Of a stretch of DNA of 58,927 bases, positions 898 to 18,882 are shown piece after piece. Positions within the stretch are counted from its first letter, which is position 1. Every line of letters starts with the position of its first letter. The stretch is from Deltaproteobacteria bacterium (GTDB lineage: Bacteria; Desulfobacterota; GWC2-55-46): contig JACRCE010000057.1 in assembly GCA_016213015.1 (NCBI GenBank), forward strand, positions 1 to 58,927. The letters are read 5' to 3'. The translations under genes were made by a program, and so were the position numbers. Under the pieces are notes generated by a model that was given only the letters and a program-made list of their open reading frames with translations, did not search any database and was not told the DNA's origin.

Positions 898-1269
898 ATG
901 CCAAAGACAGTGATGATAGTAGATGATTCGGCATCCATTAGACAGGTGGTGAACATAGTGTTGAAAAGCGGCGGCTATGACGTGGTGGAGGCGTGCGACG
1001 GGGTTGACGCCATAAACAAGCTCGGCGCCCGGAAGGTGAACCTCGTGGTATGCGACGTGAACATGCCGAACATGGACGGGTTGACTTTTCTCAAGGCCAT
1101 AAAGGCCACTCACCTCCATAAGTTCACGCCGGTCATCATGCTCACGACCGAGTCGCAGGAGTCCAAGAAGCAGGAAGGCAGGCTTGCCGGCGCAAAGGCA
1201 TGGGTGGTAAAACCCTTCAAGCCCGAGCAGATGCTTGAGGCCGTTTCAAAGCTGATGCTGCCGAACTGA
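898..1269 (+). CDS. cheY: CheY-like single-domain response regulator (paralog 1)
   Basis: ATG 898 follows GGAGGG. DD pair, phospho-Asp in 'VVCDVNMPNMDG', T in 'MLTTES', K in 'VVKPF'. Confidence 0.85.
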   Translation: MPKTVMIVDDSASIRQVVNIVLKSGGYDVVEACDGVDAINKLGARKVNLVVCDVNMPNMDGLTFLKAIKATHLHKFTPVIMLTTESQESKKQEGRLAGAKAWVVKPFKPEQMLEAVSKLMLPN

Positions 1270-1488: not shown

Positions 1489-1645
1489 GGATACTATTGG
1501 ATGAGTTCCGAACAGGTATTCATATTATTGTATCCATGCGCGGCTGACGCAAACACAGGGGGCCGAGATATCATCGGCTCCTTTTTTATTTACCATTTTC
1601 GGCATTCATCTGGTATAATAGTTAAAAAGTTTGGGAAGGAGAGGC

Positions 1646-2998
1646 ATGTTAACTCGGCGCGCGCGTCCGGAAAAATTCCTTTTTCTCTATCTGCCCACCT
1701 ACAGGCGTATCGTCATAGTATCAACCGTCGTCGCCCTTATCTTCCCCGGCGTCGTACAGATTTTTTTCGGCGATTACATACAGCTTTTTTTTAAGGACAA
1801 TATCCCCTTATATGCAAATGCGGCGGAGAACGCCTTCTGGGTGATACTCGGCATAGCGAGCGTCTTGGTGATAGCCATGAAACTTTCCGGCAGGTCGTTA
1901 AAGAAGATATCCACCGCCGAGCAGGAGATGTTCAAGGAGTTTGTAGAGCACAGCGATGCCTTTCTCATCCGCAAGCAAAGGTTCGAGCGATACTTCGATA
2001 CACAGCATGAGCTGAACACCCTTACGAGGGCGCATCTCGACACCATGATAAAGATTACTGACGAGGACGCGCATAGGATAATAAACCGCACGCAGAATAT
2101 AGACCAGTCCATGTTATGGATGCACGAGACGCTCAATGCGCTCGATAAGCAAAGCGGCGCGCTTGCCGTTCAATCGAGCGAGACCTTGTTGGCCAACGAA
2201 AAGACGGTCATTGACCTGCATGCCTATATCGACAGGAGGCTCGGCGAGGTCGAGCGCGACTATGAGGTGGTGATGAGCCTTGCCGAGAAGGCAAGGAGCA
2301 TGACCAACCTCGTGGAACTCCTCAAGGACATCAGCGATCAGACCAACCTCCTAGCGCTGAACGCGGCCATAGAGGCCGCAAGGGCAGGTGAGCACGGCAG
2401 AGGCTTTGCAATCGTGGCGCAGGAGGTCAGGAAGCTGTCGAGCCAGTCGGAGCAGGCCGCGACAAAGATAGGCCATGCCATGATGCAGATGGCCCAGGAC
2501 ATAGAGACCCAGTTTGCCAACAAGATAAACCAGCAGGCAAGCCAGCAGGAGTCCCAACTCCTTAAAAATCTCGAAGGCCAGCTCGCTAAATTGGGCGAGA
2601 GCTACAGCGCCCTCGACGCGCTCAACAAGAAGATACTCGAACAGGTGAGGACAAGCTCTAAGAAGGTCTCGGCGCAGGTGTTGGAGCTTCTCGCGGACGT
2701 GCAGTTTCAGGACATCCTGAGCCAGCAGATAAACCTTGTGATGCGTACCCTGACCGATACGAACAAGTACCTTGAGCATCTGAAATACTGCATAAACAGA
2801 GAGGGAAAATGCACGCCTGACTGCTCGGACCCGGACTGCGCTACGACCGAGTTCAGCATCGACGGCCTGTTCAACTATTATGTGATGGACAAACAGAGGG
2901 ATACCCACGAGACCGTCGTAAGCAACGGGAAGGGCAAGAAGGTCGTCAAGGAAAAAGCGGCAAAACAGCTCGTCGAGGGAGAAGTTACATATTTTTGA
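1646..2998 (+). CDS. mcp: Methyl-accepting chemotaxis protein, atypical: short N-terminal membrane part, no obvious HAMP, Cys-rich C-terminus
   Basis: Hairpin-tip signature '[35 protein letters not shown]'. ATG 1646 follows GGAAGGAGAGG; the ORF track starts at TTG 1631. Confidence 0.8.
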
Positions 2999-3009
2999 GA
3001 GGTGTCAAC

Positions 3010-3378
3010 GTGCAAAAGACCATAATGATAGTGGACGACTCGGCTTCCATCAGACAGGTCGTCAACCTGACCCTTAAAAAGGTCGGTTATAACGTGATAG
3101 AGGCTACCGACGGCGAGGACGCGCTGAAAAAACTGGTCGGGGCCAGAGTCAACCTCGTGGTATGCGACGTGAACATGCCCAACATGGACGGGATAACGTT
3201 CCTGAAGTCGCTCAAGAATTCGGCCGCGCATAAGTTTACGCCGGTCATAATGCTTACGACCGAGTCGCAGGAGGCGAAAAAGCAGGAGGGCAGGCAGGCC
3301 GGCGCAAAGGCATGGGTGGTAAAGCCCTTCAAGCCGGAGCAGATGCTCGAGGCGATTGCCAAGCTGATGTGTGATTGA
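3010..3378 (+). CDS. cheY: CheY-like single-domain response regulator (paralog 2)
   Basis: GTG 3010 follows GAGAGG and gives the same N-terminal length as paralog 1. 'VVCDVNMPNMDG', 'MLTTES', 'VVKPFKPEQMLEA'. Confidence 0.85.
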   Translation: MQKTIMIVDDSASIRQVVNLTLKKVGYNVIEATDGEDALKKLVGARVNLVVCDVNMPNMDGITFLKSLKNSAAHKFTPVIMLTTESQEAKKQEGRQAGAKAWVVKPFKPEQMLEAIAKLMCD

Positions 3379-3782
3379 TGGAGATCGGTGAAGTCGTTGA
3401 TAAGATATCGGCCGTTTTGCAGGGTTTTAAGGAAGTGGAGGTTGCCTATCTCTTTGGGTCTTATGCGACCGGTGAGGCACGGGCAACTTCCGACGTAGAC
3501 ATCGCCATCCTTGCGCCGCAACTCGGTCTTGATAGGTTTTGCGAGTTGTGGTCTTGCATTACAATCGCCGCTGGAACCGAACGCATAGACCTTGTTACGC
3601 TTGACGACAAGCCGGCGTTATTCAGATACGAGGTGATAAAAGAGGGCAGGCTTATTTATTGCAAAAACGACGAAACGCTTAATGACTTCGAGATGAAATC
3701 GTGGCAGGCGTATATGGACGGCAAGCATATCAGGGGGATATACTTAAACGACTTTTACGCGGGATTGAGCCGTGGTATTTAA
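3378..3782 (+). CDS. mntA: Nucleotidyltransferase-domain antitoxin (MntA-like, type VII TA)
   Basis: 'FGSYATGEARATSDVDIAIL' matches GS-x(n)-D-x-D of the minimal NTase fold. ATG 3378 overlaps the cheY TGA (TGATG). Confidence 0.75.
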   Translation: MEIGEVVDKISAVLQGFKEVEVAYLFGSYATGEARATSDVDIAILAPQLGLDRFCELWSCITIAAGTERIDLVTLDDKPALFRYEVIKEGRLIYCKNDETLNDFEMKSWQAYMDGKHIRGIYLNDFYAGLSRGI

Positions 3783-4200
3783 GAAGGAATCAATTGAAGA
3801 TCGGCTGCTGAAGCTCGACCAGGCGCTTGGCGTGCTGGAAGGGTATAAGGGTATTACATCGGATAGTTATCTATCCGACATAAAAACGCAATGGGTCGTA
3901 GAGCGAGGCTTTATAATCGCGGCCGAGATGATATTCGATATCAGCGCGCACATATTGTCGAGCGTTTACAGAGAGTATCGCGACGAATACGAAGGCATTA
4001 TAAGGGGCATTGCGGATAAAGGCGTTATATCGCGGACGCTCATGGGCGAGCTTAAAGGCTTCGGCGGCTTCAGGAACGTTCTTATCCATGAATACGTTAC
4101 GCTTGACTCGAGAAAGGTATATGACGCCCTCAAGGGCAAGTTGGCGGCATTGGAGAGATTTAAGAAAGAGATAGCTCAATGGGTTCGCCTGCAAGGGTAG
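3772..4200 (+). CDS. hepT: HepT-like HEPN (DUF86) toxin
   Basis: R-x4-H motif in 'GFRNVLIHEY'. The GTG start overlaps the end of mntA by 11 nt. Confidence 0.75.
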   Translation: MVFKKESIEDRLLKLDQALGVLEGYKGITSDSYLSDIKTQWVVERGFIIAAEMIFDISAHILSSVYREYRDEYEGIIRGIADKGVISRTLMGELKGFGGFRNVLIHEYVTLDSRKVYDALKGKLAALERFKKEIAQWVRLQG

Positions 4201-4332: not shown

Positions 4333-4656
4333 ATGGAAGTCTCAACGGAGACGAATAACGACGTTCTGACCCTCCGGCTTGCCGGCGAGGCCACCATTTA
4401 CGGCGCCTCGGAGTTGAAGGCAAGGCTGGACAATGTTTTTTCCGATCATCGGGACTGCGTCTCTCTTGAGCTTGACCTGTCCGGCGTAACCGAGATGGAC
4501 AGCGCTGGACTGCAACTGGCGCTTGCGGCCAAGCGCGAGGCCGTCTCTCTCGGCAAGGGGTTCAAGGTAGTCGCTCACGGCAACGCGTCAAAGGCTCTCG
4601 CTACGCTTTACAATCTCGACGATTATCTGAACGCCGCGGGGAAAGATAATGGATAA
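4333..4656 (+). CDS. STAS-domain protein (anti-sigma-factor-antagonist-like)
   Basis: 'LDLSGVTEMDSAGLQLAL' resembles the SpoIIAA/RsbV DSSGL/DSTGL region, with Ser conserved. Stop overlaps the cheA start. Confidence 0.7.
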   Translation: MEVSTETNNDVLTLRLAGEATIYGASELKARLDNVFSDHRDCVSLELDLSGVTEMDSAGLQLALAAKREAVSLGKGFKVVAHGNASKALATLYNLDDYLNAAGKDNG

Positions 4657-6859
4657 CGTGCTTGGGCAGGTGCGACATACGTTCATAGCCGAGGCGCGCG
4701 AGCTGTTGCAGGAGATCGAGAACGCGCTTCTCGCGCTTGAGGCGCGGCCTCAGGACAACGAATCCATCAACACCCTTTTCCGCGCCGTCCATACGATCAA
4801 GGGTTCATCGGGCATCGTCGGCATGGAAACGGTCGAAAGATTCACGCACCTCGTGGAGAATCTTCTTTCCATCGTGCGCGATGGGCGCATCCGCGTAACC
4901 AACCGCATTATCGAACTACTCCTTGAATCAAGGGATCATATTGCCCTGCTTGTCGAGCTTGCCGCCGAGGAAAGGGAGGCAGACAAGGACGTGCTTGCCC
5001 GCGGCGCGCATCTTGGCGACAGGCTTAATGCGTTTTTCGCCTCCGGTCCCGAGGGCGCAATGGTTTCCGAATCGGCGTCGAAAAAAACGGACGATACCGC
5101 CGCTCAGGGCCGCCTTGCTTCGACCGATGCATGGCATCTGTCCATCAGGTTCGGCCCCGATACCTTTAGAAGCGGCATGGACCCCGCGTCATTCCTGACA
5201 TATCTTACGCGGCTCGGCGATATTACCTCCCTTGTTACCTTGTTCGATCTCATGCCCGCCTTCCGCGAGATGGACCCTGAAAGCTGTTATCTCGGTTTTG
5301 AGATAGACTTGAAGAGCGACTTCGATAAAAAAACCCTTGAGGACGTCTTTGAATTCGTGCGTGAAGACTCCATAATCCGCATCCTGCCGCCGCACAGCAG
5401 GCTCGAATCATACATCGAGCTTATAAACGACCTGCCCGAGGATGCGGAGCTTCTCGGCGAGATACTGCTCAAGGGCGGCGCGCTTTCTCAGACCGAGCTT
5501 GACGACGCGCTAAGACTGCAATCAGCCGAATCCGCCATGGCGGATTCGGAACGGGGCGAGGCGGCTCAGCCCATAGGCAGGATACTCATAAACGAAGGCA
5601 TGGTGCCGGACGTGCTTGTAGACGCGGCCCTTGAGAAGCAAACCCAGACGCGGGTGCATAAATCAAGAGAGAGCGGCACGGTGCGCATCAGCGCCATGAA
5701 GCTCGACGCGCTCGTCAACCTCGTGGGCGAGCTTGTCATATCGAGCGCCAACGTCAATCAGCACACGCGGAGATTGAAGGACAACGGGCTTTTCGAGGCC
5801 GCGTCCAACATGCAGCGTCTGGTCGAGGACGTGCGCGATACGGCCATGAAACTGCGAATGGTTCCCATAGGCGAGACGTTCAGCCGCTTCAACCGCACGG
5901 TCCGCGACATAAGCTCCGGGTCGGACAAGGAGATCGGCCTCGTCATAACGGGCGCGGAAACCGAGTTGGACAAACTCGTGGTGGAGAAGATAAACGATCC
6001 GCTCATGCACCTTGTGCGTAATGCCGCTGATCACGGCATAGAGGGGCGGGCGGAAAGAAACGCGGTCGGCAAGCCCGTAAAGGGGAGTATCTGTCTGAAC
6101 GCCTGTTATGACGCCGGTTCCGTTGTGATCACCGTCTCAGACGACGGCAGAGGGCTTGACAGGGAGAAGATCAAGGAAAAGGCGGTCTCTCTTGGATTGA
6201 TAGAGGCGGACAAAACCCTTTCCGACGGCGATATATACAAGCTCATCTTCGAGCCGGGTTTTTCAACGGCTCAGGAGGTAACCAAGCTCTCAGGCAGGGG
6301 AGTGGGCATGGACGTGGTGCGCCGTAACATAGATTCGCTCAGGGGCACGGTAGGCGTGGACAGCGTAAGCGGAAAGGGCACGACGGTCAGCATAAGACTG
6401 CCTCTTACGCTTGCGATAATAGACGGCTTCATGGTCCACGTGGCAGGGTCAAGCTACGTCATACCGCTTGAGATGGTTACCGAGTGCGTCGATCTGCCTG
6501 ACTCGGAAAGGAACGCCGACAAGAGACGCGGATATATAAACCTTAGGGGCGAGGCGCTTCCCTATATACGGCTTACGTCTTTTTTCGATTGCGCCGAGAC
6601 GCCCGGATACTCCGGCGCGCGGGAGAGTATAGTAATCGTCAGACATGCGGGACGGCTGATCGGGCTTGTGGTGGACGTGCTTGAAGGCGAGATGCAGGCC
6701 GTCATAAAGTCGCTCGGCTCCGTTTACAGGGATGTGAGAGGCATATCGGGCGCGACGATAATGGGGGACGGCACGGTTGCGCTTATTGTAGACGTGCCGG
6801 CTATAGTGCAAACGGTCGAAGAGGAGATAAAGACGGTCGGATCGGCGCAGCGGACTTGA
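4649..6859 (+). CDS. cheA: Chemotaxis histidine kinase CheA (736 aa) with about 200 aa of extra sequence between Hpt and the dimerisation domain
   Basis: Hpt '[12 protein letters not shown]'. '[16 protein letters not shown]', 'GRGVGMDVV', and a C-terminal CheW-like P5. Confidence 0.9.
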
Positions 6860-6885
6860 CGGAACACAATAGGGAGGTTACACGT

Positions 6886-8592
6886 ATGAATTTTTTCAGG
6901 AATCTGAAGACCAGTTCCAAGCTGATAGTGAGTTTTGTCCTGCTCATAATATGCATCATCGTCCTTGGGGTGGTGAGCGTAACGAGGATGGGCGATCTGC
7001 GCGCCATGTTAGAGACCATGTACGACGACAGGCTTATTCCGCTCATAGACCTTGACAAGATAAACGGCGAACTCGGCCAGCTTCGCATAGGCGCGTTGCA
7101 GATAACCAACGAGCCGGACCAGTCCAAGAGGCAGACCATCCAGAACAACGCCGAGGAGTGGGAAAAGGGAATAGAGAGTATCATCGTCAAGTACGGCGCG
7201 ACCAAACTTACGCCGGAAGAGAAAAAGACCTATGAGGAGTTCAGGAGCGCATGGAAGCTGTATAACGACTCAAGGACAAACACCTACAACTGGGCGCTCG
7301 AGGGAAGCTTCGAGAAGGCCAAGCACAACGCGGCCACGGACGCCGGAGTAAAGTTCAAGATTGCCGACGCCAAGCTCAAGAGGCTCATAGAGATTCAAGA
7401 CGAGGTCTCGAAGGATCTTTACAAGCAGGCAGAGGCCAACTATTCCGCGATAAGACTGCTGGTCATAATAGTAACGCTTGTCGTAATAGCCATAGGCGTA
7501 ATCTTCGTTATAATATTAACGAGGATGATAGCTGCGCCGCTGGCAAACCTTACGGCCAACGTGGCCAACAAGATCGCGGTCGGCGATCTGACGGTTGATA
7601 TCGAGGTGAGGGGCACGGATGAGGTTGGCCAGCTCCTCTCAGCCATGAAGAACATGGCGGACAAGTTAAGGGAGGTTGTTTCCGACGTGCGCACCGTCGC
7701 GGACAACGTGGCGTCCGGCTCACAGGAGCTTTCATCGAGCGCTCAGCAGATATCGCAAGGCTCCACCGAGCAGGCGGCCTCCACCGAGGAAACCACCTCC
7801 TCGATGGAAGAGATGGCGGCCAACATAAGGCAGAACTCGGATAACGCCCAGCAGACGGAAAAGATTGCGTCGAAGTCCGCCGCGGATGCCATAGAGAGCG
7901 GCAGGGCCGTGTCTCAGACGGTCGTCGCGATGAAGGAGATAGCAAGCAAGATTTCCATCATCGAGGAGATAGCGAGGCAAACCAACCTACTTGCCCTCAA
8001 CGCCGCGATAGAGGCGGCGCGGGCGGGTGAACACGGCAAGGGCTTCGCCGTCGTCGCGTCAGAGGTTAGAAAGCTGGCCGAGAGGAGCCAGACCGCGGCC
8101 GCCGAGATAAGCAAGCTCTCGTCAACGAGCGTTCAGGTTGCCGAACAGGCCGGCGGGATGCTAACGAAGCTCGTCCCGGATATACAGAAGACCTCCGAGC
8201 TTGTGCAGGAGATAAGCGCCGCGAGCAACGAGCAGAACAGCGGGGCAGAGCAGATAAACAAGGCGCTTCAGCAGCTTGATCAGGTCATTCAGCAGAACGC
8301 GAGCGCGGCCGAGGAGTTATCCTCCACCTCGGAGGAGCTTTCCTCTCAGGCGCTTCAGCTTCAGCACACGATAGACTTTTTCAAACTCCGCGATACAGGG
8401 ACGAGGAAGACGGCCTTTGCCGCAAGGCCGACGCTCAAGGCGCAAAGGGCGCAGGCAGGGCATCTGCCTCATGCGCAGGCAAAGGCACAGCACAAGGCGA
8501 TGCACTCGGCCGCCCCGGCCCCCGGAGGCGTTGCCCTCGACATGGGTCAGCACGGCAAGGACGAGCATGACAACGAATTCGAGAGGTTTTGA
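6886..8592 (+). CDS. mcp: Methyl-accepting chemotaxis protein: 2 TM, periplasmic helical sensor, HAMP, C-terminal EFERF tail
   Basis: ATG 6886 follows AGGGAGG. '[36 protein letters not shown]'. Confidence 0.9.
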
Positions 8593-8685: not shown

Positions 8686-9186
8686 ATGGCAGTACCCGCC
8701 ATAACACAGACGACTCAGTACCTTACATTCAGACTTGAAGACGAGGTCTTCGCCCTCGACATCTCCAAGGTGCGCGAGGTGCTCGACTTCACCACCGTAA
8801 CGAAGGTGCCGAGGACGCCTGATTTCATGCGAGGCGTCATAAACCTGCGCGGAAGCGTAGTGCCGGTCGTGGACATGCGCCTCAAGTTCGGCATGACGAT
8901 GACGCAAAAGACGGTCAACACGTGCGTCATAATCGCGGAGATAAGCCTTGACAACGAAAAGATCGTGCTCGGCGCCCTTGCCGACTCGGTGCAGGAGGTA
9001 CTCGATCTTGAGCCGAGCCAGATAGAGCCGCCGCCGAGGATAGGCGTAAGGCTCAAGACCGAGTTCATCATGGGCATGGGCAAGCAAGGCGACCAGTTCA
9101 TCATCATCCTCGACGTGGACAAGGTTTTTTCAACGGATGAATTGAGCATGGTGAGCGGCATTAAGGACGCGGCGCACGGCGTATGA
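8686..9186 (+). CDS. cheW: Chemotaxis coupling protein CheW
   Basis: 'YLTFRLEDEVFALDISKVREV...VPRTPDFMRGVINLRGSVVPVVD', typical CheW. AAGGAGGGG RBS. Confidence 0.9.
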   Translation: MAVPAITQTTQYLTFRLEDEVFALDISKVREVLDFTTVTKVPRTPDFMRGVINLRGSVVPVVDMRLKFGMTMTQKTVNTCVIIAEISLDNEKIVLGALADSVQEVLDLEPSQIEPPPRIGVRLKTEFIMGMGKQGDQFIIILDVDKVFSTDELSMVSGIKDAAHGV

Positions 9187-9199
9187 ACGGTTTCACGCA

Positions 9200-10036
9200 A
9201 TGATGACGGATAAAGACTTCAGGCGCTTGAGCGACTATATAAATGCCGAGTTCGGCATAAAACTGCCGCCGTCCAAGAAACAACTGCTTGTATCGCGGCT
9301 GGCAAAGCGGCTCAGAGCGCTCAATATAGGCACATACAAGGAGTACTGCGACTATCTCTTCAGCAATGAAGGCATGGAAAAAGAGATAGTCTGCATGATA
9401 GACCTTGTAACGACCAATAAGACCGATTTTTTCCGCGAAAACGATCACTTCGACTACCTCGTCAATACCGCCCTGCCGGAGCTTGTAAGGAACGACGGCG
9501 CAGGCGTAAGGAAGCCTCTTATGGCATGGAGCGCGGGTTGCTCCACCGGCGAGGAGCCGTATACCCTTGCGATGGTATTGAACGAGTTTGCCCTGAGCTA
9601 TCCGGGTTTGGGGTTCGACTACACCGTGCTTGCCACGGACCTTTCATCGCGCGTCGTCGAGGCCGCGGCAAAGGGGATATACTCATCCGACAGGCTCTCC
9701 CCGGTGCCGGATGAGTTCAAACGCAGGTATTTCCTGAAGAGCAAGGATCAGGCAAAAGGGCTTGTAAGGGTTGTCCCCGAACTCCGCGCTCACGTCAAGT
9801 TCAGGCGCTTGAACTTCATGGAGCGCGACTTCGGCTTCAGGGAGTGCATGGACGTAATATTCTGCAGAAACGTCTTCATATATTTCGACAAACAAACTCA
9901 GGAGAAGATCATCGGCAGACTTCTCGGACATCTGAGGGCCGACAGTTTTCTTTTTATCGGCCACTCGGAGACCTTGCACGCGGGAAACTATCCGCTTGTA
10001 AGGGTTGCCCCATCGGTATACAGAAAGACGGCCTAA
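9200..10036 (+). CDS. cheR: Chemotaxis protein methyltransferase CheR
   Basis: 'TNKTDFFRE', 'AWSAGCSTGEEPYTLAM', 'IFCRNVFIYFD'. Confidence 0.9.
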   Translation: MMTDKDFRRLSDYINAEFGIKLPPSKKQLLVSRLAKRLRALNIGTYKEYCDYLFSNEGMEKEIVCMIDLVTTNKTDFFRENDHFDYLVNTALPELVRNDGAGVRKPLMAWSAGCSTGEEPYTLAMVLNEFALSYPGLGFDYTVLATDLSSRVVEAAAKGIYSSDRLSPVPDEFKRRYFLKSKDQAKGLVRVVPELRAHVKFRRLNFMERDFGFRECMDVIFCRNVFIYFDKQTQEKIIGRLLGHLRADSFLFIGHSETLHAGNYPLVRVAPSVYRKTA

Positions 10037-10068
10037 GCCGGCGTATCGCGTTACAGGAGGTTTTGATC

Positions 10069-10971
10069 ATGCATGGTCTATCGGATGAAGAGATAACCGG
10101 AGAACTGCTCAAGCGATTGAGGGACAAGGACAGGGCGTATCACGACCTTTCGGTGGTTACGAAGAAGCTGGAGGCTGTCAACGCCAGACTCATCGAGTCC
10201 GAAAAGTTGAAGACCGACTTCCTCTCGAACATTAGAAACGAGATAAATAACCCGCTTACGTCCGTGTTGACGCTCTGCGAATTTCTCGTCTCCGACGCGG
10301 ATTCGACAGGGCAGGAGACGCTTATCTCGGTCGCCGGCACCATCTACAGGGAGGCGTTCAACCTGAGTTTCCAACTCAGGAATATCTTCGCGGCGGCCGA
10401 GCTTGAAGCCGGAGACGCCGTGCTGTGCGCCTCAAACGTAGATATCCCCGCGCTTATACGCAATACCACGCTCTCCTTCAAGCAACGCATGACCGAAAAA
10501 AAGCTCTCCGTCGCGATCAACGTCGGAGAGGAGTGGAGCGCCTCTCCTTATTTCGTCGTTGACGCGGACAAGCTCCAGCGCGTACTGGCCAACCTGCTGA
10601 CCAACGCGATAGAGTTCAGCCACGAAGGAAAAAATATCGAGATAAGGGCCGGCAGGGAAGGCTCATCCCTCGTCGTTATCGTCGAGGACCACGGCATCGG
10701 CATCGAGAAGGACGCTCAAGGGATCATTTTCGACAGATTCAGACAGCTTGAAACAGGCGTAACCAAGAGCCACGCCGGGCACGGTCTGGGCCTGTCCATC
10801 GTCAAGGCGTTCGTCGAGTTGATGAACGGAACGATAACCGTACGCAGCGCGAAGAACGAGGGCACGGCCTTTACGGTAACGCTTCCCGAGGGGCAAGCCG
10901 TTGCCGGGGCATCCGCCTTTTCAGAGGACGGGAACGACTTTTTCTTCAACGACAGCGGCGAGAAGTTTTAG
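10069..10971 (+). CDS. Cytoplasmic HisKA/HATPase_c kinase-like protein whose phospho-acceptor His is replaced by Asn
   Basis: ATG 10069 follows AGGAGG. H-box position reads 'FLSNIRNEINNPL' (AAC at 10237-10239). N, G1 and G2 boxes are intact ('NLLTNAIEFS', 'DHGIGI', 'GHGLGLSI'). Confidence 0.75.
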   Translation: MHGLSDEEITGELLKRLRDKDRAYHDLSVVTKKLEAVNARLIESEKLKTDFLSNIRNEINNPLTSVLTLCEFLVSDADSTGQETLISVAGTIYREAFNLSFQLRNIFAAAELEAGDAVLCASNVDIPALIRNTTLSFKQRMTEKKLSVAINVGEEWSASPYFVVDADKLQRVLANLLTNAIEFSHEGKNIEIRAGREGSSLVVIVEDHGIGIEKDAQGIIFDRFRQLETGVTKSHAGHGLGLSIVKAFVELMNGTITVRSAKNEGTAFTVTLPEGQAVAGASAFSEDGNDFFFNDSGEKF

Positions 10972-10997: not shown

Positions 10998-11480
10998 TTG
11001 CAGACCAATAACACAAAAGACGCGACAAACCATTATCTCTACCCGGGCATGTTGTTTGCACATAACGGACAGTGCGTCATTACGACCATACTCGGTTCAT
11101 GCGTCGCCGTATGTCTGTGGGACGCAACGAAGCTTGTCGGCGGCATGAATCATTACCTTCTGCCCCTGTGGAACGGAGATGGGCTTCCAACGCCAAGATA
11201 CGGCAACGTGGCCATTCCAATGCTCATTGAAAGGATGCGGCTCCTCGGCTCGAGGCGGGAGTCGTTGAAGGCCAAGGTGTTCGGCGGCGCAAACGTGCTT
11301 GAGTCGCTCGGCGGCCTCATCGACGTAGGAGAGCGCAACATCGCGCTGGCCGAGGACATGTTGAGAAGCGAGCGCATAACCGTCGTAAGCAGTGACACCG
11401 GCGGCAATCAAGGCAGAAAGATATTGTTCATGACCGACACGGGAGACGTGTTCGTGAAGAAGGTCGAGAAAAGACCGTGA
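10998..11480 (+). CDS. cheD: Chemoreceptor glutamine deamidase CheD
   Basis: 'LGSCVAVCLWD' active-site Cys region. TTG start, so the start is uncertain. Confidence 0.8.
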   Translation: MQTNNTKDATNHYLYPGMLFAHNGQCVITTILGSCVAVCLWDATKLVGGMNHYLLPLWNGDGLPTPRYGNVAIPMLIERMRLLGSRRESLKAKVFGGANVLESLGGLIDVGERNIALAEDMLRSERITVVSSDTGGNQGRKILFMTDTGDVFVKKVEKRP

Positions 11481-11498: not shown

Positions 11499-12563
11499 GT
11501 GCCGAATAAAAAGATAAGGGTGCTTATAATAGACGATTCGGCCGTTGTGCGTCAGGCGCTCTCGAAGATTATCTCCTCGGATGCGGCTCTTGAGGTGATG
11601 GGGGCGGCCGCAGACCCGTTCATAGCGGCGGACAAGATACGCGAAGAAGCGCCGGACGTAATCACGCTGGACATCGAGATGCCGCGCATGGACGGCCTGA
11701 CCTTTTTGCAGAAGGTTATGAGCCAGCATCCGATACCCATCGTTGTTATCTCAAGCCTTGCCGAGGAAAATTCCGAGACCGCGCTCCGCGCCGTCGAGTA
11801 CGGCGCGGCAGAGATCATTCAGAAACCTCATCTGGGGATCCGCAATTTTCTGGAGGAGGGCAAGATTCTGATATGCGACGCAGTAAAGGCCGCGGCAACG
11901 GCAAAACTCAGGCGCATAATCGAGAGAAGGGTTTCTCAAAAGCTCACGGCCGACGTTGTGATAGCCAAGGCCAGGACAAGGGCAATGGCCGAGACCACGA
12001 ACAAGGTGGCGGTCATCGGGGCCTCCACCGGCGGAACCGAGGCCATACGCGACATCCTTGAGGCCATGCCGCTTAACTCGCCGGGTCTTGTGATAGTCCA
12101 GCACATGCCTGAACATTTTACCGCGGCCTTTGCAAGGCGGCTTGACGGTATATGCCGCATTTCGGTCAAGGAGGCCGAGACCGACGATACCGTGGTCAGG
12201 GGACGCGCCCTTATCGCGCCCGGCAACAAACATCTTTTGCTCAAGCGTTCGGGGGCGCGTTATTACGTGGAGGTCAAGGACGGCCCGCTGGTTTCCAGGC
12301 ATCGCCCGTCGGTTGACGTGCTGTTCCGTTCCGCGGCCCAGAACGCCGGCAAGAACGCGGTGGGCGTGATAATGACGGGGATGGGAGATGACGGGGCGCG
12401 CGGCATGGCCGAGTTGCATGAGGCCGGCGCGAGATGCGTGGCGCAGAATGAGGATTCATGCGTAGTGTTCGGGATGCCGAGGGAGGCTATAAAGCGCGGC
12501 GCGGTTGACGCCGTACTGCCGCTTTCGGCCATACCGGACGAGATAATAAGGCAGTGCGGGTAA
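11499..12563 (+). CDS. cheB: Chemotaxis methylesterase/response regulator CheB
   Basis: Receiver 'IRVLIIDDS...[13 protein letters not shown]' plus esterase '[10 protein letters not shown]', 'VQHMP', 'TGMGDDGA'. Confidence 0.9.
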
Positions 12564-12589
12564 AAACCAATGGAAGGCGCTCAACAATA

Positions 12590-13321
12590 ATGGCTTGTAT
12601 TTTATGCTCTGCGAACGGTTATGCCGAGATAGGCGACAAGAGGGGTTATACCATAGTAAAGTGCGTTGGTTGCGGATTCGTTTATACGACGCCGCTCCCG
12701 GCCGAAGATGAGCTTGCAACGCTTACCAAAAAGAAGTCGTCTAATTTCAAACCGCACGTAAGCATCAGCCGGACGATAAGGTATCGCTTTTTCGCATCAA
12801 GCGTCAAGCGGCTCTTTCCGAAGAATAAGAAGATAAGACTGCTTGAGGTCGGGTGCAATCACGGAAATTTTCTCGACGTCATCAAAAAAGACGCGAACTT
12901 TGCAGCAACCGGCATAGACCTTAATCCAGCCGCCTTGGAATATGCGAGAGGCCGGGGACTTGACGCGCGCGACGGTACGTTGGAGTCCCATAACTTCCCG
13001 TCCGGGAGTTTCGACGTTGTAGTGGCGCTCCATGTAATCGAGCATTTCCACGACCCGGTGAGGACATTGTCGGAGATGAACAGGGTTTTGTCGGAAGGCG
13101 GTCTGCTTATTTCTATCGTTCCGTGCGTTACACACATAAAGGCGAGGCTTGCAGGGATCAATTGGAAGTATTTCGGCCCGCCGAGCCATCTATGGTATTT
13201 TTCTCCCGCCACGTTCGCGATGCTCCTTGAAAAGACCGGGTTCACGCCGACGTTTTCTTCCAGTTTCTACAACAGGGCGCATCTGAAGACGATAGCAAAG
13301 AAGGCGAAGCAAATACCGTAA
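12590..13321 (+). CDS. Class I SAM-dependent methyltransferase with an N-terminal Cys4 ribbon
   Basis: 'CILCS...KCVGCGF' followed by 'LLEVGCNHGNF'. The alternative GTG start at 12554 overlaps the end of cheB. Confidence 0.6.
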   Translation: MACILCSANGYAEIGDKRGYTIVKCVGCGFVYTTPLPAEDELATLTKKKSSNFKPHVSISRTIRYRFFASSVKRLFPKNKKIRLLEVGCNHGNFLDVIKKDANFAATGIDLNPAALEYARGRGLDARDGTLESHNFPSGSFDVVVALHVIEHFHDPVRTLSEMNRVLSEGGLLISIVPCVTHIKARLAGINWKYFGPPSHLWYFSPATFAMLLEKTGFTPTFSSSFYNRAHLKTIAKKAKQIP

Positions 13322-14472: not shown

Positions 14473-15816
14473 CTACGCCGCGTGTTCCTTTTCAGCGCCT
14501 TCCTTCTCGAAGAAGGCCGCAAGGTCGATGTCGGCGGTTGTCGGGTTGACGGTTGAAATGACGCTCCGCGAGCTGTCTGCGGCCAGATCGAGCGGCACGG
14601 GGGCGGGTAGAGCCTCGCCGTTTTTGTCGAAGAGCAGTTTTATGGCCGGCAATTCGAGGGCGTCCTTGTTGACGCTCGTTACGACGCCTATCTCGTTGCT
14701 TGAAAGCCTTACCAGAGTGCCGACCGGATACGTGCCGATCATGTTGATGAAGACGTTGAGCGCGTCAGGGTTGAAGTGCCTGCCTGAGAAGTTCAGCATG
14801 ACCCTCAGCGCCTCGGCAGGGTTATGCGGCTGCTGGTAGACCCTGAGCGTAGTCAGCGCGTCAAAAGCGTCGGATATGGTGATTATCTGCGTCAGGGGAT
14901 GCAGGTTGCTCATCGTTTGCGGGTAGCCTGAATGGTCGAATCTTATATGGTGTTCGTAGATGAGCTTGCCGATAAGTTCCGTCATCCCGTCCATTCGTTT
15001 TATGATGTTCGAGCCGAGGAGCGGATGCTCCTTTATCTTTTCCCACTCATCAGAGCTTAACCCGCCGGGTTTTCTTATTATCTGTTCCGATACGCCCGTC
15101 TTGCCGATGTCGTGCAGAAGAGCGCCGATGCCCACCGCGTGCAGTTCGTCCCTGTCGATGTTCATGGCCTTGCCGAGGGACAGCGCGATTATCGAGACGT
15201 TGACCGAGTGGTTGTAGAGGTAGTTGTCGTAGTTCTTGATCATCGTGAGGCCGATGATGGCGTTGGCGTCGCTCAACACGGACTCGGTAAGCTCGTTTAC
15301 GACGTCGTTGACGGGCTCTGATTTAGGTATCTTGCCGAGCCGAACGTCGTTCATCACGTTTTTGACCGTCTCGACCGCGCCGTTGTATATCTCGACTATC
15401 TTTTTTCTGACGGTCTTGAGGGTTATGTGCGTAACGCCTTTCGCATGCAGAAGTTTGTGCAACTCCTGCCCCTTTGGCGCATCCTGTCCGGCAAGCGTAT
15501 CAAAGAGGCTGAAAAGCTCTTTTTCGGTTACGCCTTTTTCAAATATGACGGCGTCCACCTGCTTGTCGGCGAGATGGGCAAGTAGTTCCGGAAACATCTG
15601 TTCTCCGTTCGACACGGGATGGTCTTCAAACACCAGCGCGTCGTTGACGTTGCCGATCATCAGATTTTTCTGCGTCTTCAGGACGTCCGTCAGAAGATCG
15701 TAGGATTTTTTGGACGGCGCGGCTATGGCCGGATGTCCCGGCGGATAGAGCTTCTTGCTCTTCATGGCCGCGTTTATGCTCTTGAGGATCGCATCCTGCA
15801 TGTCGGGCGATATCAT
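14473..15816 (-). CDS. HD-GYP domain phosphodiesterase with an uncharacterised N-terminal domain
   Basis: 'HSVNVSIIAL', 'LLHDIGKTGV', 'HHIRFDHSGYP'. Confidence 0.85.
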   Translation of the reverse strand: MISPDMQDAILKSINAAMKSKKLYPPGHPAIAAPSKKSYDLLTDVLKTQKNLMIGNVNDALVFEDHPVSNGEQMFPELLAHLADKQVDAVIFEKGVTEKELFSLFDTLAGQDAPKGQELHKLLHAKGVTHITLKTVRKKIVEIYNGAVETVKNVMNDVRLGKIPKSEPVNDVVNELTESVLSDANAIIGLTMIKNYDNYLYNHSVNVSIIALSLGKAMNIDRDELHAVGIGALLHDIGKTGVSEQIIRKPGGLSSDEWEKIKEHPLLGSNIIKRMDGMTELIGKLIYEHHIRFDHSGYPQTMSNLHPLTQIITISDAFDALTTLRVYQQPHNPAEALRVMLNFSGRHFNPDALNVFINMIGTYPVGTLVRLSSNEIGVVTSVNKDALELPAIKLLFDKNGEALPAPVPLDLAADSSRSVISTVNPTTADIDLAAFFEKEGAEKEHAA

Positions 15817-17393
15817 TTAATTCTCGCTTTTGCGTCGAGTATTCTCCGGCAGGCGGCATGAAGATCGCCGGAGGAGGCCGCCGCACAGTCGCGAACCGCG
15901 TCAATGGCCTTCTTCGAGCCTATCGCGCCGAGCGCATTGGCCGCAAGCGCCCGCGCTTGTTCGTTGGATTCTTTGCCGAACCAGACCTTGCGCAGCAGTA
16001 TAGGCACCAGATACGGCAATGCCTTTTCATTCCCGATGTTGCCGAGCGCCTTGATGGCTTCCTTCGTTGCCTCGCGCGTTTCGGCAAAGGGGTCCCTTTT
16101 ACCGGCTATTTTGCCGAGAATGTCGATAGCCGAGGAGTCTTTGAGCATACCGAGGGATATTATGGCCTGATTCACGAGCGATTCTTCTTTTTCCTCAAGG
16201 GCGTTGATAAGTATCGCGGTCGAGCGTTTGGAGCGTATCTTGACGAGGCTTTTCAAGACCTCTTTTTTTACCCGCGTGTCTTCGTGACCGTAAGCGTTCT
16301 CAAGTTCGTCAAGGCAGCCCTCGTCCCCAAGTTCACCCAATATCGCCGCCATCTGCCTTACGATGAACCATTTGTCGCTTTGGAGGCGGTGCTCCACGTT
16401 GGGACGCATCTTGGGGCCGAACATGACGACGCCGTCAAAGTAGTGGCGTCTTGACGCGGCGTCTTCCGACGAGACGAGCGCGTCGAGGAGCGGCTCAAAG
16501 GCTTGAGTATCGGCTATGAGCAGGATGCGTTTTATCGCGTCGCGCAAAGGCTCCTCCTTTGCGCCTAACTTGCCGACGAGCAGCCGCATCATATCAGGAT
16601 TGAACAAAGAGCGCAACCGCTCATCCGCCGCAGCCGTTATCTCCTCGGGAAGCCCTGATGACGGCTTCATGCCCTCAAGGAAGACGATCATGACGCCCAG
16701 CACATTGTCAAGATCTCCGGCATGTAGAAGTTCATCGGCCTTTTCTTTTATGCGCGCAGACAGGTCGTTGTATCTGAGAGAGTCCCGTTCAACGCGAATC
16801 TTGGCTATCAGGGTCGCCAAGTCGTCTGCCGAGGCTTGTTCTTTTTCATCGGGTTGTTTTTTCAGCTCATCGGCCTCCCCTGCTTCACCTGCCGCTTCAG
16901 GCAGTTCCTTTTCCGCCGCTTCCTGCTTCTTCTTTTCTTCAAGATCGGCCTTGAGTTTTTCAAGGTCGTCGTAAGTAAGCGCGTTCAGGAGTATGCCGCT
17001 TACGTCCGCTCCGGCCATGAGCGTCTCAGCCCCGCCTCTCGCATGTACGTCGTCAGGCTCAAGCTTCAACATGGACAGAAATACACTCAGTTCGCGGCTG
17101 TTGAAACGGTGGGTGAAGGTTATCTGGTTTATGCGTCTGAAGAATATCTTGCGCGCAAGGGACGCGACATCAAGGTTGCCTGGCGCTATTGGAGTTTTGT
17201 CGTCGTAAAACCCCTTCTGATCAAGCCTCCATTTCAGATCGCCGTTCTCGTCCACATTTTTTTTGATGATAGAAAAGCACCTCTCAAGCGCTTGATCGAG
17301 GTTAGGATGGCCGTCAGGATAGAAATTATGCATCTTGACAGCCTTGGTCAGTTCAATTAGTATATTTGTGTGGCTTTGCAGTTCCGTAACCAT
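15813..17393 (-). CDS. HEAT-repeat protein. Its N-terminal domain is paralogous to that of the downstream HD-GYP protein
   Basis: C-terminal HEAT-like repeats ('AIKALGNIGNEKALPYL', 'AANALGAIGSKKAIDAV'). ATGA overlap with the next gene. Confidence 0.7.
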   Translation of the reverse strand: MVTELQSHTNILIELTKAVKMHNFYPDGHPNLDQALERCFSIIKKNVDENGDLKWRLDQKGFYDDKTPIAPGNLDVASLARKIFFRRINQITFTHRFNSRELSVFLSMLKLEPDDVHARGGAETLMAGADVSGILLNALTYDDLEKLKADLEEKKKQEAAEKELPEAAGEAGEADELKKQPDEKEQASADDLATLIAKIRVERDSLRYNDLSARIKEKADELLHAGDLDNVLGVMIVFLEGMKPSSGLPEEITAAADERLRSLFNPDMMRLLVGKLGAKEEPLRDAIKRILLIADTQAFEPLLDALVSSEDAASRRHYFDGVVMFGPKMRPNVEHRLQSDKWFIVRQMAAILGELGDEGCLDELENAYGHEDTRVKKEVLKSLVKIRSKRSTAILINALEEKEESLVNQAIISLGMLKDSSAIDILGKIAGKRDPFAETREATKEAIKALGNIGNEKALPYLVPILLRKVWFGKESNEQARALAANALGAIGSKKAIDAVRDCAAASSGDLHAACRRILDAKARIK

Positions 17394-17523: not shown

Positions 17524-18882
17524 ATGAACCCTAAGCTGAAAACCATATACTCGTGTCAGTCATGCGGCCATGCGGCGCATAAATGGCTTGGCAGGTGTCC
17601 CGATTGCGGCGGTTGGAACAGCTTTGTCGAGGAGCGCGCGCCTCAAGCGCCGAAGGGGAGATACGTGTCCGGTTCCTCGTCAACGCCGCAGGCCATAACG
17701 CGGCTTGACATGAAGGAGGAGGACAGGATGCCGACCGGCATAGCCGAGCTTGACAGGGTGCTCGGGCACGGTTTGGTTCCGGGTTCGGCCGTGCTCATCG
17801 GCGGGGAACCGGGCATCGGGAAGTCTACCCTCCTATTGCAGGCAATGGGCGCGCTTGCCCGCGCCAATCGCAAGGTGTTGTACGTTACCGGAGAGGAGTC
17901 CATGCGCCAGATAAGGCTCAGGGCCGAGCGTCTCGGCGCGGTTTCGGACAACCTTATCGTCTTTTCTGAGACCTCGGTTGAAAGGGTCTTGGCAGTAATC
18001 AAAGAGATTGCCCCGGACGTAATCGTCATTGATTCCATACAGACCGTTTACAGCGAGGCGCTCGATTCATCGCCCGGGAGCGTTAGTCAGGTGCGCGAGG
18101 CGTCTCACAGGCTCATTACCGTTGCAAAGGCGATGGAAGCGCCGCTGTTCCTCGTAGGACACGTTACAAAGGACGGCGCCATAGCCGGGCCAAAGGTGCT
18201 GGAGCACATGGTTGACACGGTTCTTTATTTCGAGGGCGACAGGGGGCATCTGTTTAGGATATTAAGGGCGGTAAAGAACCGTTTCGGCTCTATAATGGAG
18301 ATAGGCGTCTTTGAGATGCGGCAAAACGGGTTGTGCGAGGTCTTGAATCCGTCCGAGACCTTCCTTGCCGAGAGGCCGGATGGCGCGTCAGGTTCAGCCG
18401 TGGTATCGAGCCTTGAGGGAACAAGAACGATACTCGTGGAGGTGCAATCTCTCGTATGTCCAACGCTTTTCGGGATGCCGAGAAGAACCGTCGCGGGCGT
18501 GGATTATAACAAGGTGATCCTCATCGCCGCCGTGCTGGAGAAAAAGGCGGGCATGGCGCTTGCAAATCACGACATATTCATAAAGGTGGCCGGAGGGATG
18601 CGGCTCGACGAACCCGCGGTTGACCTTGGCGTAGCGGCCTCCATTGCCTCGAATTTCCTTGACAAGCCGGTTGATCCCAAGACCGTTATCATAGGAGAGC
18701 TTGGCCTTGCAGGCGAGGTAAGGGCCGTGAATCAGGTTGAATCCCGGATAAAGGAGGCCGCAAAGCTTGGATTTCAAAGGTGCATCCTCCCAAAGGACAG
18801 CCTCAAGGGTCTTCCCAGCCTCAAGGGGATGACGCTCATTGGCGTAAAGTCCGTGAAAGAGGCGATAGATGCCATGTTCTAA
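17524..18882 (+). CDS. radA: DNA repair protein RadA/Sms
   Basis: Zn ribbon 'CQSCGHAAHKWLGRCPDCGGWNSF', Walker A 'GGEPGIGKST', 'KNRFG', Lon-like C-terminus. Confidence 0.95.
   Translation: MNPKLKTIYSCQSCGHAAHKWLGRCPDCGGWNSFVEERAPQAPKGRYVSGSSSTPQAITRLDMKEEDRMPTGIAELDRVLGHGLVPGSAVLIGGEPGIGKSTLLLQAMGALARANRKVLYVTGEESMRQIRLRAERLGAVSDNLIVFSETSVERVLAVIKEIAPDVIVIDSIQTVYSEALDSSPGSVSQVREASHRLITVAKAMEAPLFLVGHVTKDGAIAGPKVLEHMVDTVLYFEGDRGHLFRILRAVKNRFGSIMEIGVFEMRQNGLCEVLNPSETFLAERPDGASGSAVVSSLEGTRTILVEVQSLVCPTLFGMPRRTVAGVDYNKVILIAAVLEKKAGMALANHDIFIKVAGGMRLDEPAVDLGVAASIASNFLDKPVDPKTVIIGELGLAGEVRAVNQVESRIKEAAKLGFQRCILPKDSLKGLPSLKGMTLIGVKSVKEAIDAMF

Follow-up and report, generated by a model that had tools for sequence, protein, structure and literature searches.

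What can a protein with the build of a histidine kinase do in a chemotaxis operon when its phospho-acceptor His is missing? The question is raised by a gene lying between cheR and cheD in a stretch of 58,927 nucleotides (contig JACRCE010000057.1 of assembly GCA_016213015.1, from a Deltaproteobacteria bacterium), the whole of which is referred to below as the window. An earlier note on this DNA had described the product as resembling a histidine kinase but lacking the phospho-acceptor His, and that description was borne out. We use the name HKL for the product of 10069-10971 and for its family, and we find that HKL is a real, strongly conserved His-to-Asn variant of the HisKA/HATPase proteins which forms a module with CheD and is apparently undescribed. 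Three things go beyond what the earlier note had reported, namely the linkage to cheD, the retention of an E-x-x-N phosphatase motif and a Lys-to-Glu substitution in the N box. The gene and its two immediate neighbours are:

9200..10036, plus strand: cheR, directly 5' of HKL (Pfam).
10069..10971, plus strand: the HKL gene (His-less HisKA/HATPase_c protein), 300 aa plus stop, placed by translation, Pfam and homologue starts.
10998..11480, plus strand: cheD (chemoreceptor glutamine deamidase), directly 3' of HKL (Pfam CheD).

Within an open reading frame (ORF) listed as 9844-10971, the gene runs from an ATG at 10069 to a TAG at 10969-10971. Since the sequence AGGAGG stands at 10055-10060, 8 nt 5' of this ATG, and since Met1 coincides in the alignment with the N-terminus of ~216 homologues, we take ATG 10069 to be the real start. 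Pfam HATPase_c (PF02518) matches residues 165-275 with 102 bits, and HisKA (PF00512) barely passes over residues 48-114 (27.0 bits, cut-off 26.9). The H-box, FLSNIRNEINNPL, places Asn57 at the phospho-acceptor position; as read from the DNA it is DFLSNIRNEINNPL. Set side by side, HKL has FLSNIR-N-EINNPL where kinases have FLANMS-H-ELRTPL. The two residues at issue are as the earlier note had read them, codon 57 (10237-10239) being AAC (Asn) and codon 56 (10234-10236) AGA (Arg).

Does the Asn belong to this one genome or to a family? With HKL as the query, a word-indexed search returned 2862 relatives (E<1e-10), and the top 120 of them were all ~300 aa long and 47-83% identical. Another ~100 small relatives, down to 37% identity, came from searching 1.84 billion cluster representatives exhaustively and without a profile. 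Past the small relatives, the ranking consisted of ordinary large hybrid kinases (~30% identity). The family alignment holds 217 small proteins at 37-100% identity, of which 216 span the H-box. Asn stands at position 57 in 214 of these; the two exceptions, P0173 with His and P0183 with Cys, have kept all remaining family signatures. The nearest canonical kinases have His at the acceptor position in 50 of 50 cases. Of 64 distinct loci, 34 use AAT and 30 use AAC, and since both Asn codons occur, Asn57 has been retained through synonymous turnover. The carriers belong to Nitrospirota, Desulfobacterota (including Geobacter, Desulfuromonas and Trichlorobacter), Magnetococcales, Campylobacterota (a Sulfurimonas) and Bacteroidota, where they are many (Marinilabiliaceae, Cytophagales, Flavobacteriia). 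Alkaliflexus imshenetskii, Geofilum rubicundum, Labilibacter sediminis, Fulvivirga sediminis and Agaribacillus aureus are cultured carriers, as are Plebeiibacterium and Shiella from the Bacteroidota. To judge from the aligned sequences, Asn57 is almost certainly a conserved trait of the family.

The earlier note had asked for sequencing error, or a very recent inactivation of an ordinary kinase, to be excluded by aligning orthologues. A single A-to-C change at 10237 would indeed yield His, and one relative, P0173, has it. Against such an artefact stand the Asn in 214 of 216 relatives with both codons in use, co-conserved substitutions at five other active-site positions, and purifying selection that is evident over the whole protein, the motifs being intact from 83% to 37% identity. 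Both error and recent decay are rejected, as the orthologues conserve Asn57, and we give this explanation practically no chance. Read-level support for codon 10237-10239 is moot for the same reason.

The substitution of His is one of several at the active site, the parts of which lie as follows:

10219..10257, plus strand: remodelled H-box, F51-L63 (family alignment).
10240-10242 and 10249-10251, plus strand: E58 and N61 of the E-x-x-N motif, which corresponds to the HisKA E/D-x-x-T/N phosphatase motif (sequence).
10591..10620, plus strand: N box, N175-S184 (NLLTNAIEFS; N175/N179), with E182 where the nearest canonical kinases have Lys in 50/50.
10687..10701, plus strand: G1 box, D207-H-G-I-G211 (D 95%, G209 99%, G211 96%).
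10729..10740, plus strand: F box, F221-D-R-F224 (family alignment).
10777..10794, plus strand: G2 box, G237-H-G-L-G-L242, with the family-specific H238.

When the columns of the HKL family (217 rows) were compared with the 50 nearest canonical kinases, the following was found at each site:

H-1: canonical Ser 100%; HKL family Arg/Lys 96%.
H: canonical His 100%; HKL family Asn 98%.
H+1: canonical Glu; HKL family Glu 98% (E58), unchanged.
H+3: canonical Arg 98%; HKL family Asn 85% (N60).
H+4: canonical Thr 98%; HKL family Asn 98% (N61).
N box, after NxxxNA: canonical Lys 100%; HKL family Glu 78%, Lys 14% (E182).
G2 box: canonical GTGLGL (Thr 80%); HKL family GHGLGL (His 89%, H238).

Conservation within HKL is highest in the H-box, where P62 is found in 99% of the rows. 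The adenine/Mg core is kept (N175 99%, N179 100%, D207 95%, G1/G2 glycines 96-100%). The earlier view that the ATP boxes are intact therefore holds in part: N, G1 and G2 are present, but the N-box Lys has become Glu and the G2 Thr has become His. A site that has been remodelled and then fixed in this manner points to neofunctionalisation, not to decay. Another conserved His, which could serve as an alternative phospho-acceptor, was sought in the dimerization and histidine phosphotransfer (DHp) domain of the family alignment and none was found; the two conserved His residues belong to the catalytic and ATP-binding (CA) domain, H238 (89%) being part of G2 and H235 (78%) part of the ATP-lid stretch that immediately precedes G2. 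HKL has the HisKA (DHp) profile, the helical hairpin and the HisKA phosphatase motif, the acidic H+1 and the Asn at H+4 each being 98% conserved, but not the phospho-acceptor His. Since this defining residue was tested and is absent, HKL is not a functional member of the histidine-kinase family, and since Asn stands in place of His, autophosphorylation on the canonical site is predicted to be impossible.

The overall fold appears to have been left as it was. The segments at the two ends of the protein are:

10084..10410, plus strand: N-terminal coiled-coil helix merging into DHp helix 1 (residues 6-76), and DHp helix 2 (residues 82-114) (AlphaFold2, conservation).
10912..10968, plus strand: acidic, disordered C-terminal tail, residues 282-300, with a predicted local distance difference test score (pLDDT) of 44.

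An AlphaFold2 (AF2) model built on a 43-sequence alignment (pLDDT 83.8, predicted template modelling score 0.75) consists of one long helix (6-76), a second one (82-114) that runs back along it, a CA domain of alpha/beta type (122-273) and a loose tail, with the ATP lid of the CA domain at low confidence. It contains no transmembrane-like segment, and the claim that the protein is soluble with a coiled-coil N-terminus fits this model well. DHp helix 2 carries a family-specific stretch, EAFxLxFQLRNIFAAAELEAGE, where canonical kinases have one of the DLLDLSR type. The best Foldseek matches were the HK853 chains from HK853-RR468 complexes (3dge, 6rh0, 5uht), with template modelling (TM) scores of 0.84-0.87 and root-mean-square deviations (rmsd) of 2.3-3.0 A; free HK853 (2c2a) matched more weakly (TM 0.68, rmsd 6.7 A), and DivL (4q20) was at rank 10. 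A profile search of Protein Data Bank sequences agreed, with HK853 at the top (E 5e-46 against the profile of the family) and DivL high. On this model the fold of HKL is that of a standard DHp+CA transmitter, and its likeness to the receiver-bound conformation of HK853 may be taken as a hint only.

Set against HK853 of Thermotoga maritima (2c2a, 3dge), HKL shares the DHp hairpin and CA domain, the Glu at H+1, a polar phosphatase residue at position H+4 and the four boxes N, G1, F and G2. It differs in H260->Asn, S259->Arg/Lys, R263->Asn, T264->Asn, K383->Glu and the G2 Thr->His; furthermore, unlike HK853, it has no sensor or transmembrane part, and its gene is paired with cheD, not with a cognate regulator.

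The partner of HKL is indicated by the genomic context. Of 86 loci annotated by phmmer with the Che proteins of the window as queries, all those that include DNA downstream of HKL have cheD directly 3' of it in the same orientation. The ORF-to-ORF gaps of 63 measured pairs range from -59 to +129 nt and are mostly within +/-15, with one further pair at locus L087, and independent look-ups with precomputed Pfam labels confirmed the adjacency. The pair also stands alone, with no other che gene within ~10 kb, for example at L003/L004, L008, L014, L016, L017 and L024, and at L010, L012 and L019 there is no che gene 5' of the pair, an MCP (methyl-accepting chemotaxis protein) gene or a separate che cluster lying 3'. 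Four loci have two cheD copies 3' of HKL. The CheD proteins so linked conserve the Cys of the GSC motif and the His of the NH motif, which we regard as catalytic by reference to T. maritima CheD. HKL is very probably linked to CheD in function.

In the two Magnetococcales metagenome-assembled genomes represented by L003 and L004 (7455-13890), the pair sits between dnaN and gyrB, within the origin-region cluster dnaA-dnaN-gyrB, and the DNA examined has no other che gene anywhere near it.

Fusions of a receiver domain (REC) to HKL were found in three cluster representatives, all with Asn; at the one locus that was fetched (L087, protein P0195), cheD is the next gene. One protein of 459 aa, P0276 (MBE7415781.1), at first appeared to be a natural HKL-CheD fusion and was rejected as such, being a frameshifted read-through in a poor assembly; for this reason it gives no Rosetta-stone evidence. 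It has Tyr at position 57, and the assembly error joins HKL and CheD in one 90% cluster.

In its usual full form the operon reads (MCP)-cheY-STAS-cheA-(MCP/cheW)-cheR-HKL-cheD-cheB. In the F7 order described for gamma-proteobacteria (PMC7184735), cheD comes right after cheR and the gene lists show nothing kinase-like in between; the full HKL operons follow this F7-type order, plus HKL. CheC-like ORFs are rare inside the HKL clusters, at 2 of 148 unassigned in-cluster ORFs in a Pfam census.

What might such a protein do next to CheD? The reading that we put forward, and which may well be right although we stop short of calling it probable, is that HKL is a kinase-dead, receiver-directed transmitter, a phosphatase or sensor of CheY~P or CheB~P that works with CheD as CheC does. 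The HKL dimer would bind a phosphorylated receiver on its DHp helices in the manner of an ordinary kinase, the receiver being the CheY of the operon and possibly CheB. E58-x-x-N61, with N57 as a second amide, would position a water by which the acyl-phosphate is hydrolysed, and HKL would act as a dedicated phosphatase and/or a sensor of CheY~P. An interaction between HKL and CheD would couple the level of CheY~P to receptor modification, and HKL would thus fill the CheD-related role that CheC has in Bacillus and Thermotoga in operons of F7 order where CheC-like genes are rare. We infer receiver binding, phosphatase chemistry and a physical or functional coupling to CheD here, beyond the family, the Asn, the fold and the adjacency described above. 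The candidate receivers in HKL operons are a single-domain CheY and CheB, which in the window are:

2995..3378, plus strand: cheY of the operon (single REC), candidate receiver substrate (domain annotation).
11499..12563, plus strand: cheB (REC plus methylesterase), candidate receiver substrate (Pfam).

For four HisKA proteins, Willett & Kirby found that the Thr/Asn at H+4 is required solely for phosphatase activity (PMC3510030). One of them, CrdS of Myxococcus xanthus, is a natural H-E-x-x-N protein and so resembles HKL in its E-x-x-N; CrdA~P had a half-life of 0.7 min with wild-type CrdS, 2.6 min with H371A and 53.5 min with no enzyme, while N375A abolished the shortening, making N375 (H+4) essential for the CrdS phosphatase (PMC3510030). 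CrdS differs from HKL in having kept its His and in being a real kinase, the His being lost only in the engineered mutant. CrdS works beside a Che-like system. CheZ (D-x-x-x-Q) and CheX (E-x-x-N) also use an acid and an amide for the same dephosphorylation chemistry, and the helix face of HKL offers E58 and N61, plus the amides N57 and N60. There is a precedent for a kinase-family protein in such a role in Rhodobacter sphaeroides, where CheA3 is a dedicated CheY6~P phosphatase, although CheA3 is CheA-type (Hpt/P5) and not HisKA, shows no sequence relationship and is not linked to CheD.

The arrangement of the genes also has a parallel, since in Bacillus subtilis and T. maritima the gene for the phosphatase(-like) CheC is directly 5' of cheD, as HKL is. 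That the E-x-x-N site of CheC/CheX dephosphorylates CheY~P, and that CheC regulates CheD, is established, as cited in PMC2577667. HKL differs from CheC in having no CheC/CheX Pfam match (PF04509, PF13690), another fold, an ATP-binding domain and no receptor-mimicking methylation-site helix (0/220). In its most far-reaching form the proposal is that HKL is an unrecognised, HisKA-derived, nucleotide-binding and hydrolysis-only phosphatase of CheY~P or CheB~P in which the Asn abolishes back-transfer, and that it is obligatorily coupled to CheD and explains how CheD is regulated in the many systems without CheC of Nitrospirota, Desulfobacterota, Bacteroidota, Magnetococcales and Campylobacterota; in this form we consider it possible but rather doubtful.

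Several points weigh against the receiver-directed phosphatase. In HK853, H260 and T264 jointly position the water and the H260A protein is diminished (PMC5727384), and PleC H610A was reported to be without both activities (PMC3510030). The need for the His thus varies among HisKA phosphatases, so that a phosphatase without it is plausible, not guaranteed. DivL has retained E-x-x-T after its Tyr and is not known as a phosphatase, and because of this the retention of E-x-x-N is no proof of phosphatase activity. The conservation of the nucleotide core (N175, N179, D207, G1, G2) is not explained by a phosphatase model alone, and neither are the N-box Lys-to-Glu change, the G2 Thr-to-His change or the role of the C-terminal tail. 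Adjacency to cheD is a functional linkage that gives no direction or nature of the interaction. Lastly, a receptor-like methylation/deamidation consensus was looked for in 220 HKL proteins and found in none. CheC uses receptor substrate mimicry to bind CheD, and since HKL lacks such a consensus, any contact between HKL and CheD would differ from that of CheC. As regards the nucleotide core, it may be noted that ADP/ATP stimulate the phosphatase activity of some kinases, for example EnvZ.

The same conservation could be read in terms of binding. HKL might be a non-catalytic, DivL-like pseudokinase or scaffold that binds CheY~P and/or CheD and allosterically controls the availability of CheD or the activity of CheA and the receptors, an explanation that we regard as unlikely yet worth serious attention; that nucleotide binding would then be merely a conformational cofactor we hold to be equally unlikely. 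DivL of Caulobacter crescentus (4q20), which acts by binding a phosphorylated single-domain receiver, has the HisKA/HATPase fold with a substituted phospho-acceptor and stands high, in sequence and in fold, among the matches of HKL, in which the acceptor is likewise lost and the fold fully conserved. Invariant residues of the N-terminal helix (R16, N38, L41, E45) suggest a partner-binding surface, the REC of the fusions is placed at this N-terminal end like an input domain, and the Lys-to-Glu change in the N box may impair the handling of a triphosphate. Against a purely binding role, the conservation of E58, N61 and three amides round the site reaches at least 85-98%, seemingly beyond what binding needs. 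DivL, however, shows an equal retention of the motif, and the sequence data do not separate a scaffold from the phosphatase or sensor that we favour. Orthology to DivL itself is not supported by the sequences, which are ~27% identical with another architecture and context: DivL has Tyr and not Asn, is a large membrane-anchored PAS protein, is lineage-specific and has no CheD link. HKL is best described as analogous to DivL and to CheC and orthologous to neither.

The nucleotide site and the tail bear on a further explanation, that HKL is an ATP-dependent enzyme of the adaptation module with a new target (CheD, an MCP or CheR/CheB) which it would phosphorylate or remodel at the expense of ATP, or that it autophosphorylates on a residue other than His. 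The changes at the gamma-phosphate/acceptor junction are coordinated and fixed (S56R, H57N, R60N, T61N, K182E, T238H), the adenine/Mg site is retained, and HKL lies inside the cheR-cheD-cheB block. Such chemistry has no precedent in HisKA proteins, and the Lys-to-Glu change speaks against efficient phosphoryl transfer. As an example of an acceptor, the invariant Ser53 lies one helical turn before position 57, but ordinary kinases, too, often have Ser or Ala at H-4 (A 70%, S 24%); we consider a new target improbable, and Ser53 as the acceptor no less so. The tail has the motif G-N-[DE]-F-[FLI]-F and ends in E-x-F, with a terminal F in 177 of 214 proteins and E at -3 in 142 of 214. This E-x-F resembles the final three residues of the MCP pentapeptides of the operon, a point in favour of a new target, whereas the pattern x[FWY]xx[FWY] fits only 1/214 tails, and the tail was rejected as a CheR/CheB-binding pentapeptide.

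The terminal F is lost (…DQMDEK) in L014, L017, L024, L020, L023 and L060, all of Geobacter/Desulfuromonas type. At L014, L017 and L024 the HKL-cheD pair has no cheA directly upstream, and at L020, L023 and L060 it follows cheB and not cheR.

One target had been named in the earlier note, which suggested a Ser-kinase or scaffold role toward the STAS protein of the operon. The scaffold half of this suggestion survives as the DivL-like rival discussed above; the Ser-kinase half fared less well, as the Ser is not conserved in the STAS proteins and the invariant partner is cheD. The STAS gene of the window is:

4333..4656, plus strand: STAS-domain protein, directly 5' of cheA, which keeps D-S-A-G (Pfam, alignment).

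In this explanation HKL would be a Ser/Thr kinase like SpoIIAB/RsbW that phosphorylates the STAS protein in a partner switch. Of the 45 full operons (those with cheA upstream), 39 have a ~100-aa STAS gene, Bacteroidota included, as determined by the Pfam census and an iterated hidden Markov model, and for this reason the idea is not to be dismissed by co-occurrence. The N, G1, F and G2 boxes of HKL are conserved, and the 25 commonest Pfam families of the in-cluster ORFs include no PP2C or RsbW-type protein and thus no other obvious STAS kinase nearby. On the other hand, STAS is absent from nine loci without cheA upstream of the HKL-cheD pair and from six operons, so that HKL is found without STAS within ~10 kb but never without cheD. 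At the phospho-Ser position of SpoIIAA/RsbV (after the conserved Asp), the operon STAS proteins have Ser/Thr in 11 of 46 and Leu/Ile/Met/Val in 34 of 46, in a count on short, divergent domains whose alignment is possibly one residue off, and the HKL signature is unchanged in the operons whose STAS has lost the phospho-Ser. It is probable from their sequences that most of these STAS proteins are outside canonical partner-switch phosphorylation control. STAS adjoins cheY/cheA and is regular in gamma-proteobacterial F7 clusters without a listed kinase-like gene (PMC7184735).

SpoIIAB/RsbW and HKL both have GHKL ATP-binding without a phospho-His, and mostly a STAS gene in the same operon. They differ in that SpoIIAB/RsbW have no DHp/HisKA domain while HKL has the DHp hairpin, its match to the RsbW-type HATPase_c_2 (PF13581) being sub-threshold at 26.9 bits against a cut-off of 27.4; the Lys that contacts the ATP phosphates in canonical kinases is Glu in HKL; and the Pfam census of in-cluster ORFs showed neither a sigma factor nor a PP2C partner at HKL loci. 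HKL is not a SpoIIAB-type kinase. Since the phospho-Ser is not conserved and STAS-less loci exist, the STAS-kinase role is disfavoured, and we judge it very improbable. As far as the alignments tell, it does not appear to be the conserved function of HKL, and a Ser-kinase activity toward STAS in the clade of the window is a possible one.

Most of the operon STAS proteins (46 loci; e.g. L031:5010-5315) show a D-[LI]-[TS]-F pattern, with a hydrophobic residue for the phosphorylatable Ser.

HKL has gone under other names. In public records the HKL proteins are called 'hypothetical protein' or carry names such as 'HAMP domain-containing (sensor) histidine kinase', and the gene-order schemes of one comparative study treat HKL simply as a histidine kinase (PMC9239204). 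NCBIfam has no HKL-specific model, the matches being to generic kinases far below their cut-offs. A published characterisation of the family was not found in the literature searched, which did not cover the original F-class classification, and a passing mention is possible. The kinase labels inflate two-component counts and mask a chemotaxis component.

To our knowledge, CheC is the only known regulator of CheD, and many chemosensory systems that carry CheD are without CheC; HKL is a concrete candidate for the control of CheD in such systems. If HKL were a phosphatase, it would be a new family beside the CheY~P phosphatases CheZ, CheC/CheX/FliY and CheA3, and a natural experiment on the need for His in the HisKA phosphatase reaction. 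The existence of cultured carriers makes the question directly testable.

A distinct form of the operon occurs in Marinilabiliaceae, Bacteroidota that are generally non-flagellated gliders. It reads MCP-cheY-STAS-cheA-cheW-cheW-cheR-HKL-cheD-cheB, after which come another cheR-like gene and a ~190-aa REC protein (loci L029, L031, L033, L036, L038, L039, L042, L044-L046, L050, L081), and the H-box of its HKL is the variant FISNI[ST]NEIVNPF.

The remaining genes of the operon and its upstream part in the window are:

898-1269, plus strand: cheY paralogue, 78% identical to the cheY at 2995-3378, both being single-domain.
1631-2998, plus strand: upstream MCP, with a Pfam match to MCPsignal only and the C-terminus EVTYF.
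3375-3782, plus strand: MNT-type nucleotidyltransferase (Pfam).
3772-4200, plus strand: HepT-like RNase (Pfam).
4649..6859, plus strand: cheA, with Hpt, dimerisation, HATPase_c and CheW domains and no REC (Pfam).
6856..8592, plus strand: operon MCP, 4HB-HAMP-MCPsignal (Pfam).
8686..9186, plus strand: cheW (Pfam).

The MCP at 6856-8592 has four sites of the methylation/deamidation consensus, Q-containing ones included, with candidate sites for CheD at residues 286 and 455, and the C-terminal pentapeptide EFERF (8575-8589, plus strand). In the MCPs of ~40 related loci the C-terminal pentapeptides are nearly all of the type x-[FY]-E-[KR]-[FY], and presumably they are tethers for CheR/CheB. The CheD of the window matches the CheD models of NCBIfam with scores under their equivalog cut-offs. 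The MNT/HepT toxin-antitoxin pair (3375-4200) interrupts the spacing between cheY and STAS; in the related operons L001, L005, L009, L011 and L013, STAS follows cheY directly, without this insertion. A GGDEF protein is encoded at 79-648, 5' of the cheY paralogue.

At the other end, a class-I S-adenosylmethionine methyltransferase gene (12554-13321, plus strand; Methyltransf_23/11) shares 10 nt with the end of cheB, and its co-transcription with the che operon is possible. Further on, an HD_5 (HD-GYP-like) gene (14473-15816) and a HEAT-repeat protein gene (15813-17393) lie on the minus strand with a 4-nt overlap, and this pair is adjoined by radA (17524-18882, plus strand).

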